IMG/VR virus record: IMGVR_UViG_2563366999_000003
Coordinates: 1-23,211 of that record
From: a virus
Taxonomy: Duplodnaviria; Heunggongvirae; Uroviricota; Caudoviricetes
Direction: 5' to 3' (one strand)
DNA: 23,211 bases
In this document: piece after piece, positions 18,862 to 23,211 of the stretch
Position numbering within the stretch: the stretch's first letter is position 1
How the letters are laid out: each line of letters opens with the position of its first letter
Notes under the pieces: generated by a model
Seen by the model: only the letters and a program-made list of their open reading frames with translations
Databases searched by the model: none
Told to the model about the DNA's origin: nothing
Made by a program: the position numbers and the translations under genes

Positions 18862-18889
18862 GGGCGCCAGAAATGGCGCCTTTTTTATT
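18862..18889 (+). terminator. Intrinsic terminator downstream of J (tJ-like)
   Basis: GGCGCC-AGAAAT-GGCGCC (self-complementary 6-bp GC stem, 18863-18868 / 18875-18880) followed directly by TTTTTTATT (18881-18889). Confidence 0.7.
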
Positions 18890-19510: not shown

Positions 19511-19530
19511 TTAGTAGTACAGCGTGATGA

Positions 19531-19558
19531 AAGCCCGCCGGTTCAGGCGGGCTTTTTT
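19531..19558 (+). terminator. Intrinsic terminator downstream of lom
   Basis: GCCCGCC-GGTTCA-GGCGGGC (7-bp GC-rich stem 19533-19539 / 19546-19552) followed by TTTTTT (19553-19558), 21 nt after the lom stop. Confidence 0.75.
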
Positions 19559-19569
19559 GTGGGGTGAAT

Positions 19570-22500
19570 ATGACGGTTAAGATTTCAGGTGTACTGAAAG
19601 ATGGAGCAGGCAAACCGGTACAAAACTGCACCATTCAGCTAAAGGCCAGACGCAACAGCACCACGGTGGTGGTGAACACGGTGGCCTCAGAAAATCCGGA
19701 TGAAGCCGGGCGTTATAGTATGGACGTTGAGTATGGCCAGTACAGCGTCACCCTGCTGGTTGAAGGTTTTCCGCCTTCGCATGCCGGGACCATCACAGTG
19801 TATGAGGATTCAAAGCCGGGTACGCTGAATGATTTTCTCGGCGCAATGACGGAGGATGATGCCCGTCCGGAGGCACTGCGCCGTTTTGAACTGATGGTGG
19901 AAGAGGTGGCGCGTAACGCGTCCGCAGTGGCACAGAATGCGGAAGCCGCGAAGAAGTCAGCCAGCGATGCCAGCACATCTGCCAGTGAGGCGGAAACCCA
20001 TGCGACTGATGCTGCAGACTCAGCACGCGCAGCCAGCACGTCAGCCGGACAGGCTGCATCATCTGCTCAGTCAGCATCTTCCAGCGCAGGAACAGCATCA
20101 ACAAAGGCCACTGAAGCCTCAAAAAGTGCTGCCGCTGCAGAGTCCTCAAAAAGTGCGGCGGCCACCAGTGCCAGTGCCGCGAAAACGTCAGAAACGAACG
20201 CGGCAGCGTCACAACAATCCGCAGCCACCTCAGCATCCACCGCGACCACGAAAGCGTCAGACGCTGCCACCTCAGCCCGGGATGCGGCGGCTTCAAAAGA
20301 GGCGGCAAAATCATCAGAAACGAGCGCAGCCTCGAGCGCCAGTAGTGCAGCTTCCTCGGCTACGGCGGCAGGAAATTCCGCGAAGGCGGCAAAAACGTCC
20401 GAGACGAACGCCAGGGCTTCTGAAACGGCAGCGGAACAGAGTGCCTCCGCAGCAGCAGACTCAAAAACAGCGGCTGCGTCGTCTGCCAGTGCCGCGTCAA
20501 CAAGTGCCGGGCAGGCCTCAGCCAGTGCCACCGCCGCCGGGAAATCGGCGGAAAGCGCGTCGTCATCAGCGACAACAGCTACCGCAAAAGCGACTGAGGC
20601 GACGAATCAGGCTACAGCTGCTAAAAATTCAGCATCGGCAGCAAAATCCTCTGAAACAAATGCAAAGACTTCAGAAGACAATGCCGCTTCCTCTAAGGCG
20701 GCAGCTGCTGAATCTGCAAGTTCTGCGTCTGCATCAGCCACCTCGGCGTCCGCTTCAAAAGATGAGGCGATCAGGCAGGCGTCAGCTGCGAAGGGTAGTG
20801 CTTCAACGGCATCCACGAAAGCAACAGAGGCGGCAGGCAGTGCGACGGCTGCATCTCAGAGCAAAACTGCTGCTGAATCCGCTGCGACCCGTGCGGAAGC
20901 TGCTGCTGATCGTGCTGAAGAGATTGCCGGTGCGGTTGCGATGGAAGACGCAAGCCTTACCACTAAAGGTGTTGTGAAACTTAGCAGTGCTGTCGACAGC
21001 ACCAGTGAATCGCTGGCCGCAACGCCAAAGGCAGTTAAAGCAGTCAATGACAATGCGAACAGCAGGGTGCCATCTGACCGAAAAATTAACGGGAAAGCAC
21101 TGACTGGGGATATCACATTAACGCCGAAAGATATTGGTACTTTAAATTCAGTAACGATGTCTTTCTCTGGCGGGGCTGGGTGGTTCAAACTGGCTACGGT
21201 TACCATGCCACAAGCGAGTTCCATCGTTTACATCACATTGATTGGTGGTGCCGGATACAACGTCGGCTCCCCACAGCAGGCAGGTATTTCAGAACTGGTT
21301 CTACGAGCAGGCAATGGAAACCCCAAAGGGATTACCGGAGCTTTGTGGAAGCGTACAGCCGTCGGATTAACGAATTTCGCCTGGATCAACACATCCGGCG
21401 ATACATATGATATTTACGTTGAGACTGGCAATTATGCGACGAGTGTAAATATCCATTGGGATTGTACTGCAAATGCGTCAGTTTCTGTTTATACATCGCC
21501 AGCCTATTCAGCGAGTAAGCCTTCCGGCGTTACCGATGGTGTTGTTTATACGATGTATAGCTCACATCAGAAACCTACACCATCAGATATTGGAGCACTG
21601 CCAACAACCGGAGGAACAGTTTCAGGTCCGTTGTCTGTTACTGGTGGGATCACCGGGGCACTGAAGGGGAACGCCGATACCGCGACGAAACTTGCGGCAG
21701 CCAAAAAAATTAACGGTGTTAAGTTTGATGGCTCGGCGGATATTAATCTCACGCCGGAAAATATTGGTGCATTTGCCCTACGTGCGACGGGGGCTTATGC
21801 GGATTCGGATGGAGCCGTTCCGTGGAATGCTGAATCCGGTGCATATAATGTCACGCGTTCTGGCGACTCCTGTCTTGTTGCAAACTTTTATACCGGTGTG
21901 GGGAGTTGCCAGACTCTCCAGATTCGCGCTCATTACAAGAATGGCGGTCTGTTTTACCGTTCTTCGCGTGATGGTTATGGCTTTGAGGAAGACTGGACTC
22001 AGATTTATACCAAAAAAGACAGCATTCCGGGAGTAAATACGACAGGTAACCAGAACACTACGGGTAATGCGGCAACAGCTACAAAACTACAGACGGCAAG
22101 AACTATCGGCGGTGTGAGCTTTGATGGTACTGCGAATATTAACTTGCCTGGTGTTAATACGACTGGTAACCAGAGCACTACAGGCAATGCAGCTACTGCC
22201 ACGAAGTTGCAGACAGCGCGTACTATTAATGGCGTGTCGTTTGACGGTTCGGCAAATATTTCTCTGTCACCAGCAAATATTGGTTGCCCGGCATCTCCAA
22301 CTGGCTGGTTAGGCACAGGGAGTAATGGTGCATCAATAACAACGGCTCAGTTAGTGACGATATTGCAGAATAATGGTGCCTTCAATACAAAAGCATGGGT
22401 GGCACGCTGTGCCTGGGCATACGCTGACAGCGCCTCCATACCAGACAGTGAAACAGGCTGCGGCATTATTCCACTGGCGGGGGCGGTGATAGAAGTATTC

Positions 22501-23211
22501 AGCCACAGTGCAACTTATTACACCATTCGAATAACAACAGCCACGACGACAAGTGTCTCTGGCGCACTCACTAATGCGGAATTTATCTATGTGTTTAATG
22601 GCACAGCTTATTCCCCCGGATGGCGTCGTGCACTGAACACAAAGAAACTGCCCACACCGCTTGAAATTGGCGCTTACAGCATATCGGAGATTAACCAACT
22701 CAATAAAAGTTTTATCACGTCATCAAAACTCGAAGGCGGCTCGTTAGATGCAAACTTCCAGACGTTAAGTTGTTATTATTTGCAAATATTCGACATTCAG
22801 ACAACAACCGATAGTCCTAACATGTTCGTAAGTCCGGTTGCTGGTTACAACATGGTATTTCGTTCGACTTCATCCCGTCGATACAAGACGGATATCGAGT
22901 CTTTAGAGAACAGGTACGCGGACGAGTTGTTGAAACTTCGTCCTGTATGGTATCGCTCGACTTGTGAAAGGGACAGAAAGGACTGGGGACATTATGGCCT
23001 TATTGCAGAAGAAGTCGGAGAGATAGCACCGCAATATGTTCACTGGCGTCCTCTTACAGACGAGGATGATCCAGGTATAGCGTCTGATAATGGGATGGTT
23101 GCAGAAGGCGTGATGTATGACCGTCTGGTTGTTCCACTCATTCATCATATTCAGAAACTGACAAAAAGGGTTGAGGAGCTTGAAGCAAAGTTAAAGCTAT
23201 CCGAGCTATAA
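19570..23211 (+). CDS. stf: Side tail fibre protein Stf (1213 aa from ATG 19570): lambda-Stf-like N-terminus, Ala/Ser-rich shaft, fibre repeats, divergent distal tip, C-terminal intramolecular-chaperone-like autoprocessing domain
   Basis: N-terminus MTVKISGVLKDGAGKPVQNCTIQLKARRNSTTVVVNTVASENPDEAGRYSMDVEYGQYSV matches lambda Stf. ATG 19570 has GGGG 5 nt upstream; an in-frame GTG at 19564 would add 2 aa. Uninterrupted ORF to the TAA at the last 3 nt of the window. C-terminal about 115 aa resemble endosialidase-type intramolecular chaperone (peptidase S74) domains. Confidence 0.92.
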   Translation: MTVKISGVLKDGAGKPVQNCTIQLKARRNSTTVVVNTVASENPDEAGRYSMDVEYGQYSVTLLVEGFPPSHAGTITVYEDSKPGTLNDFLGAMTEDDARPEALRRFELMVEEVARNASAVAQNAEAAKKSASDASTSASEAETHATDAADSARAASTSAGQAASSAQSASSSAGTASTKATEASKSAAAAESSKSAAATSASAAKTSETNAAASQQSAATSASTATTKASDAATSARDAAASKEAAKSSETSAASSASSAASSATAAGNSAKAAKTSETNARASETAAEQSASAAADSKTAAASSASAASTSAGQASASATAAGKSAESASSSATTATAKATEATNQATAAKNSASAAKSSETNAKTSEDNAASSKAAAAESASSASASATSASASKDEAIRQASAAKGSASTASTKATEAAGSATAASQSKTAAESAATRAEAAADRAEEIAGAVAMEDASLTTKGVVKLSSAVDSTSESLAATPKAVKAVNDNANSRVPSDRKINGKALTGDITLTPKDIGTLNSVTMSFSGGAGWFKLATVTMPQASSIVYITLIGGAGYNVGSPQQAGISELVLRAGNGNPKGITGALWKRTAVGLTNFAWINTSGDTYDIYVETGNYATSVNIHWDCTANASVSVYTSPAYSASKPSGVTDGVVYTMYSSHQKPTPSDIGALPTTGGTVSGPLSVTGGITGALKGNADTATKLAAAKKINGVKFDGSADINLTPENIGAFALRATGAYADSDGAVPWNAESGAYNVTRSGDSCLVANFYTGVGSCQTLQIRAHYKNGGLFYRSSRDGYGFEEDWTQIYTKKDSIPGVNTTGNQNTTGNAATATKLQTARTIGGVSFDGTANINLPGVNTTGNQSTTGNAATATKLQTARTINGVSFDGSANISLSPANIGCPASPTGWLGTGSNGASITTAQLVTILQNNGAFNTKAWVARCAWAYADSASIPDSETGCGIIPLAGAVIEVFSHSATYYTIRITTATTTSVSGALTNAEFIYVFNGTAYSPGWRRALNTKKLPTPLEIGAYSISEINQLNKSFITSSKLEGGSLDANFQTLSCYYLQIFDIQTTTDSPNMFVSPVAGYNMVFRSTSSRRYKTDIESLENRYADELLKLRPVWYRSTCERDRKDWGHYGLIAEEVGEIAPQYVHWRPLTDEDDPGIASDNGMVAEGVMYDRLVVPLIHHIQKLTKRVEELEAKLKLSEL
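19915..20930 (+). repeat. Low-complexity Ala/Ser/Thr/Lys-rich periodic region of stf (predicted helical shaft)
   Basis: About 340 codons dominated by A, S, T, K, E. The motif AAK(T/S)SET(N/S)A recurs with its K codon at 20182, 20308, 20392 and 20644, i.e. spacings of 126, 84 and 252 nt, all multiples of 42 nt (14 codons). Confidence 0.8.
22030..22269 (+). repeat. Two tandem 120-nt (40-codon) tail-fibre repeats within stf
   Basis: Unit 1 22030-22149 (GVNTTGNQNTTGNAATATKLQTARTIGGVSFDGTANINLP) and unit 2 22150-22269 (GVNTTGNQSTTGNAATATKLQTARTINGVSFDGSANISLS). A more degenerate copy lies upstream (GNADTATKLAAAKKINGVKFDGSADINLTPENIGA, about 21660-21780). Confidence 0.9.

Follow-up and report, generated by a model that had tools for sequence, protein, structure and literature searches.

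Introduction

Since the structures of K1F and T5, self-cleaving C-terminal chaperones have been a textbook route by which trimeric phage fibres fold, and the endosialidase of K1F bears a chaperone of the S74 type. The C-terminal chaperone of this coliphage enzyme (endoNF, PDB 3GW6) is the founding member of Peptidase S74; its carrier is a podovirus tailspike with a sialidase. In the T5 fibre protein pb1 the chaperone is severed at Thr1263/Ser1264, with Lys1269 activating the serine, and the S1264A substitution stops cleavage; this IMC contains a central trimeric coiled coil (PMC4690869). Cryo-EM of a BASEL phage, furthermore, found the Pfam-annotated chaperone and coiled coil to be missing from the mature particle (bioRxiv 10.1101/2024.10.28.620165). 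An ICA domain is also present in metazoan MyRF (PDB 7DC3), a eukaryotic membrane-bound transcription factor in which the domain is not C-terminal and has an unrelated biological role.

Other phages encode a separate chaperone. Lambda (Ur-lambda) has a separate Tfa next to its side tail fibre protein Stf, and the Mu S/S' and P1 S fibres, which are served by the U/U' Tfa chaperones (PDB 8ju3), run on to a tip that is followed by a Tfa gene. In artificial lambda-Stf::K1F chimeras a foreign fibre or spike was fused to the N-terminus of lambda Stf at residue 528 (Nature 2024, PMC11338833). Lambda particles carrying the fusion to the K1F endosialidase are functional, and thus the fibre or spike of another phage can assemble on the lambda tail via the Stf N-terminus. 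Here we describe a natural mosaic that likewise combines an Stf N-terminus with a chaperone-bearing end: a long side fibre of the lambda type, from a lambda-like E. coli prophage, in which no enzyme domain is recognisable and which ends in an S74 chaperone domain of its own that is very probably self-cleaving.

Results

The window ends with an intact lambda-type stf gene

The stretch of DNA that we analysed (the window, 23,211 nucleotides) corresponds to the first 23211 bases of contig KB733108.1 (GCA_000352465.1), on which stf ends at position 23211. Translation from the ATG at 19570 yields a single unbroken ORF of 1213 aa, with an alternative GTG start at 19564 in the ORF list; as the first-pass annotation had stated, this ORF reaches the last base of the window.

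19570-23211, plus strand: stf, the side tail fibre gene (1213 codons plus TAA; ORF list and translation)
23209-23211, plus strand: TAA stop codon of stf, the window's final three bases
19570-19971, plus strand: N-terminal lambda-Stf-type anchor domain, residues 1-134 (PF08400 phage_tail_N, E 2e-72, profile positions 1-134 of 134)

Upstream of stf lie the gpA terminase, a lambda-family portal and the major capsid protein gpE, followed by the gpV tube protein with its Ig domain, the tape measure protein gpH, gpL, gpK, gpI, gpJ and Lom. The terminase, portal, capsid, tube, tape measure, L, K, I and J genes are all full-length in the window. The name stf is justified by the PF08400 N-terminal domain and by the position of the gene behind this lambda-type morphogenesis module, after J and lom. 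The description of the tail as otherwise lambda-like is thus borne out by the anchor domain and by the A-to-J, lom, stf module, and the locus shares with lambda the J-lom-stf order, the lambda-type tail genes and a site beside ybhB and bioA.

The stf reading frame is intact across six assemblies, in which it spans 1108-1213 codons. The full Stf protein is recorded in two NCBI assemblies with precomputed PF08400 and PF13884 annotations; its near-identical homologues carry only the RefSeq name 'prophage tail fiber N-terminal domain-containing protein', and a search of the whole Stf protein against NCBIfam gave no match.

The C-terminus of Stf matches Peptidase S74

The C-terminal sequence of Stf (...FRSTSSRRYKTDIESLENRYADELLKLRPVWYRS...GLIAEEVGEIAPQYVH...GMVAEGVMYDRLVVPLIHHIQKLTKRVEELEAKLKLSEL*) is encoded by the DNA exactly as earlier quoted, and the first-pass annotation had assigned it to an S74-like autoprocessing chaperone. 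A Pfam search upheld the assignment, with a significant match to Peptidase_S74 (PF13884, 'chaperone of endosialidase') beginning at the predicted serine. The match joins Stf residues 1101-1157 to profile positions 1-57 of 58, with a score of 33.8 bits against a gathering score of 22 (E 4e-8 with the whole of Stf); with the last 133 aa alone it likewise exceeds the gathering score (E = 2.6e-9). A match of this strength lies well outside what chance would produce. PHROG tail-fibre families, in turn, span the chaperone stretch up to the Stf C-terminus. The domain ends at the stop codon, i.e. at the extreme C-terminus of the fibre protein.

22870-23208, plus strand: C-terminal intramolecular chaperone/autoprocessing domain (residues 1101-1213, 113 aa)

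When 1.84 billion cluster representatives were searched exhaustively with phmmer, 3563 had E <= 1e-3. In the best 150 of these 3563 the match is always C-terminal and lies within a few residues of the end, in proteins ranging from 129 to 1477 aa. The closest representatives carry the chaperone, at 68-95% identity, on several different N-termini: other lambda-type Stf N-termini (P0046, P0054), a P2-type tail-collar N-terminus (P0053) and T4 gp34/gp37-like fibres. Of 5426 complete E. coli genomes, 804 contain related coding DNA, for the most part within chromosomal prophages, and four of these have the exact stf allele.

Relationships to solved structures are more distant. A phmmer search of the PDB sequences with the last 133 aa gave one weak match, 8hqz_d (E 0.009). 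A profile built from 14 homologous sequences matched the C-terminal part of that chain, a solved L-shaped tail fibre, at E 1e-6, in an alignment that pairs RSTSSRRYK with GTSGIEYK and continues into the terminal helix; the same profile did not reach 3GW6 or 4UW8 among the PDB sequences. The sequence similarity between the K1F domain and that of Stf lies below direct phmmer detection.

The chaperone domain also occurs unfused to Stf. In the lambda-like PhiR55_1 (L004, 6095-9417), in PeterMerian (L005, 2485-5438) and in many T1-like Drexlerviridae, a chaperone 62-65% identical to that of Stf terminates a protein of its own, 227-231 aa long, whose gene comes second after that for the side or lateral fibre, the two being separated by an ORF of ~90 aa. 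These proteins are annotated as 'hypothetical', 'chaperone of endosialidase' or 'putative lateral tail fiber chaperone', and one cluster of them (P0023) has 650 member sequences. After self-cleavage ~105 residues would remain, which could serve as a small distal fibre piece or as a chaperone in trans. We also considered that stf might have been joined artefactually to a small S74 gene of the separate PhiR55_1 kind, and rejected this since all six independent assemblies show one continuous frame.

stf is followed by host genes and putative cargo, not by tfa

The cis arrangement proposed for Stf makes a prediction about the DNA downstream, where no tfa was found. On KB733108.1 stf is followed by a gene for a 292-aa nitroreductase-DUF1653 fusion, an opposite-strand gene for a 261-aa alpha/beta hydrolase, a 40-aa ORF and the host gene ybhB, and then by bioA and bioB. 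In the near-identical A25 stretch, none of the 10 ORFs of at least 40 aa downstream of stf matched tail-fibre-assembly families at E <= 0.1. No annotated tail fibre assembly protein is present anywhere in the fully assembled related A25 prophage, nor in the displayed downstream region of strain 377323_2f, in which the tail-tip genes between L and stf are annotated as intact. The two-gene arrangement of lambda, with tfa immediately behind stf, is thus missing here, and the absence of tfa together with the S74 profile match supports the earlier proposal of a chaperone fused in cis in place of a separate Tfa.

The A25 prophage lies between ybhC and ybhB and has lambda-like int and xis genes at its far end, an arrangement that equals the classical lambda attB with the J side facing bio. 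In the window's contig, the nitroreductase-DUF1653 fusion and the opposed alpha/beta hydrolase (L006, 9995-11838) occupy the position of the lambda b region, from stf to the ybhB/bioA end, and they are possibly cargo ('moron') genes. The A25 prophage (L008, 36074-37300) has lost all head and most tail-shaft genes, from just past the small terminase to tail gene M; what remains are L, K, I, J and lom, together with an stf that is intact and includes the chaperone domain.

Stf is a mosaic with a Mu/P1-type knob

Between the anchor and the chaperone, Stf has a shaft, a knob and a short segment that precedes the predicted cleavage site.

19972-21009, plus strand: Ala/Ser/Thr-rich shaft, residues ~135-480 (~345 aa; 36% Ala, 24% Ser)
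22222-22647, plus strand: knob domain, residues ~885-1026 (Mu S/S' fibre homology, PDB 8ju3_A, E 1.5e-49)
22648-22869, plus strand: pre-cleavage segment, residues ~1027-1100, with which the mature fibre would end C-terminally; the final ~35 residues of this segment and the chaperone are conserved together

Stf has 1213 aa here and 1108 aa in A25 and 377323_2f, the proteins being otherwise ~98% identical. Pairwise alignment with A25 places the 105-aa length polymorphism in the shaft, at residues 186-290 (window 20125-20439), which suggests from the sequence that the shaft may have been expanded or contracted through repeats. The stretch between the shaft and residue 783 gave no Pfam or PDB match. 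Residues 783-815 (window 21916-22014) are homologous to Mu S' (8ju3 residues 373-405) and are followed by two copies of a 40-aa fibre repeat, seen in the DNA as a 120-bp tandem repeat at 22036-22260. Both this segment and the knob at 885-1026 are thus shared with the Mu fibre, in an order along Stf that is reversed compared with 8ju3. The distal architecture also differs from that of T5 pb1: the mature distal domain of pb1 is bullet-shaped, whereas Stf has a Mu S-type knob and a short cap, and the N-terminal attachment domains of the two proteins are different.

The knob is 89% identical at the amino acid level to that of a fibre encoded by plasmid pAVS0578-B, a P1-type phage-plasmid, and this similarity stops at about residue 1039. 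The plasmid fibre continues for ~236 further residues past the knob and is followed by tail fibre assembly genes; these fibre and assembly genes sit in an invertible S/U-type region adjoining a recombinase. In Stf, by contrast, ~1039 is followed by 61 residues and then by the S74 domain, from which it follows that the chaperone comes as a cassette together with a short pre-cleavage segment. Judged from these alignments, the S74 cassette stands where the plasmid fibres have a tip plus Tfa. More tentatively, and with the odds rather against it, the cassette (~1040-1213) may have replaced 'distal tip plus Tfa' directly behind the 89%-identical knob, in which case the Tfa and S74 strategies would be naturally interchangeable on one knob and ~1039 would be a ready splice point for Tfa-free engineered fibres. 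A megablast search of a phage collection gave only a partial match, to phage Cyrano, which covers the knob and not the chaperone. The P1-type phage-plasmids that bear the knob are ~90-110 kb in size, with 243 plasmid matches in E. coli genomes.

The Mu-like segments raise the question of whether the fibre still depends on a Tfa-type chaperone supplied in trans, e.g. by another prophage of the same genome, with the S74 domain folding only the last short segment. The homology of residues 885-1026 and 783-815 to the Mu S/S' fibre speaks for such a dependence, as does the fact that the 89%-identical knob of the P1-type phage-plasmids precedes tail fibre assembly genes; E. coli genomes, moreover, often hold several prophages with tfa, SE11 being one example. 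However, the ~236 post-knob residues of the P1-type fibres are absent from Stf, which has the IMC cassette instead, so that the part expected to need Tfa is missing. The prophage region itself is without tfa, and lambda particles with chimeric Stf, including the lambda-K1F fusion, are functional (PMC11338833). We therefore regard dependence on Tfa in trans as improbable, and favour folding of the Stf tip by its own S74 domain.

In E. coli SE11, a related lambdoid prophage at ydfJ (L003, 5008-10645) has an interrupted stf, the C-terminal part of which ends in a chaperone ~84% identical at the DNA level. Behind it come remains of a tfa, then another stf-type gene, which is complete, and a gene for a DUF4376 protein, so that both maturation routes lie side by side at this locus.

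The predicted cleavage site is conserved

The Ser1101 codon begins at position 22870 of the window, and Ser1101 is position 1 of the PF13884 profile.

22867-22872, plus strand: predicted scissile bond Thr1100/Ser1101 (PF13884 profile position 1, T5 pb1 match, Ser conservation)
22885-22887, plus strand: Lys1106, predicted general base of a Ser-Lys dyad (five residues past the Ser, as is Lys1269 in T5 pb1; conserved in 145/146)
23116-23205, plus strand: terminal long helix, residues 1183-1212, presumed core of a trimeric coiled coil (AF2 model)

We assessed conservation in an alignment of 148 sequences with pairwise identities of at most ~50%. The blocks that had been picked out by eye at 22870-23211 (~115 codons) are all present and turn out to be the most conserved columns of the family across these 148 diverse sequences. 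Ser1101 and Lys1106 are each kept in 145 of 146; the G-L-I-A-E-E-V and Y-D-R-L blocks are nearly invariant (G1143 in 147/147, I-A-E-E in 145-147/148, Y1183 in 148/148 and R1185 in 147/148). Conservation extends to the residues before the predicted bond, R1098-S1099-T1100 each being present in 134-137 of 140 sequences (R1098 in 134/140, T1100 in 137/140). Of the Ser...Lys motif as first described, the serine that opens the block stood, S1101 being invariant but for a single sequence, and the spacing had to be corrected: SSRRYKTDI reads S-x4-K-x-D-I and not S-x-x-x-K-x-D-I. The adjacent S1102 is replaced by Ala in one homologue. With T1100-S1101-S-R-R-Y-K1106, the Thr-Ser...Lys spacing is identical to that of Thr1263, Ser1264 and Lys1269 in T5 pb1.

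An AF2 model of a 133-aa query contains a helix at query residues 103-132, with block pLDDT values of 73-96 over residues 101-133, and is uncertain around the cleavage site. This uncertainty, and the fact that no counterpart of the T5/K1F sensor Arg and Asp could be mapped on the Stf sequence, could be taken to mean that the S74-like domain stays uncleaved and forms part of the mature fibre, be it a variant that is degenerate or does not process itself, or a domain with a structural role at the distal end. Yet the Thr-Ser...Lys site is intact and near-invariant over 148 representatives that are at most 50% identical, which is hard to explain without catalytic use, and in a related phage the chaperone and coiled coil are missing from the mature particle seen by cryo-EM (bioRxiv 10.1101/2024.10.28.620165). 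Retention of the domain is accordingly very unlikely in our estimation, even less likely than a Tfa acting in trans. For a self-cleaving Stf chaperone, the nearly invariant R1098 at position -3 is, on conservation, a candidate for a sensor residue.

Discussion

In this study we have dissected the C-terminus of a lambda-type side tail fibre protein. We conclude, with a probability of roughly 85%, that the last 113 residues of Stf are a C-terminal intramolecular chaperone domain of the Peptidase S74 type that cleaves itself off, so that no separate Tfa is needed. This reading relies on membership of the sequence profile, conservation of the catalytic dyad, the C-terminal position of the domain, the absence of tfa and a possibly compatible fold in the AF2 model, which is uncertain near the cleavage site.

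By homology to K1F and T5, we infer that the domain would nucleate the Stf trimer, be cleaved and be absent from virions. The trimeric coiled coil and the alpha/beta body of the S74 domain would align three Stf chains in register, and the domain would nucleate folding of the distal fibre, starting at its C-terminal end. Correct distal folding would then assemble the active site, upon which Ser1101, activated by Lys1106, would attack the Thr1100-Ser1101 peptide bond in every chain. A 113-residue fragment (~13 kDa) would be released, and the mature fibre would terminate at or near Thr1100. With its chaperone in cis, the phage would need no separate Tfa, and none is encoded in the prophage region.

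That stf is a recombinational relic of a decaying prophage, never assembled into particles and with a fused domain that has no current role, is suggested by the A25 prophage, which lacks head genes yet keeps stf, by the broken stf and tfa remnants of the SE11 relative and by the 105-aa variation in shaft length between strains, but we consider it highly improbable given an ORF that is intact at 1108-1213 codons in six assemblies, a window with full-length terminase, portal, capsid, tube, tape measure, L, K, I and J genes, and a chaperone whose functional residues are all intact.

The first-pass annotation had regarded a fused chaperone on a lambda-like tail as a departure from the usual maturation route, and this overestimated how unusual the architecture is. 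The self-cleaving module is well understood and often met with in phage fibres; the PF08400 plus PF13884 architecture is common in E. coli prophages and is already annotated publicly, by Pfam, for this exact Stf protein; S74 domains on the fibres of Stx phages were noted as early as 2014 (PMC4122784). Our literature searches found no paper describing a natural lambda-type Stf that is matured by a cis chaperone without Tfa. As databases already annotate the architecture, this gap reflects something not written up rather than something not known. The finding has little consequence for basic biology and modest practical value: it documents a natural lambda-type Stf that is predicted to be Tfa-independent, with a precise mosaic junction at ~1039 between a Mu/P1-type knob and a chaperone cassette, and this junction could help in constructing chimeric lambda side fibres for particles that deliver DNA.

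Finally, we note some features of the DNA flanking stf. In the 350 bases 3' of the gene, a terminator scan found nothing terminator-like, and a promoter scan found one weak promoter-like match, which is below the shuffled-control number. On the other side, between lom and stf, the window contains a hairpin with a U-run (AAAGCCCGCC-GGTTCA-GGCGGGCTTTTTT, 19529-19558; -21.2 kcal/mol, z -3.4) that ends ~11 bases upstream of the stf ATG. This hairpin was missed by a simple terminator scan, which listed a J-lom hairpin at 18862-18881. If both hairpins are terminators, expression of stf would need antiterminated late transcription.
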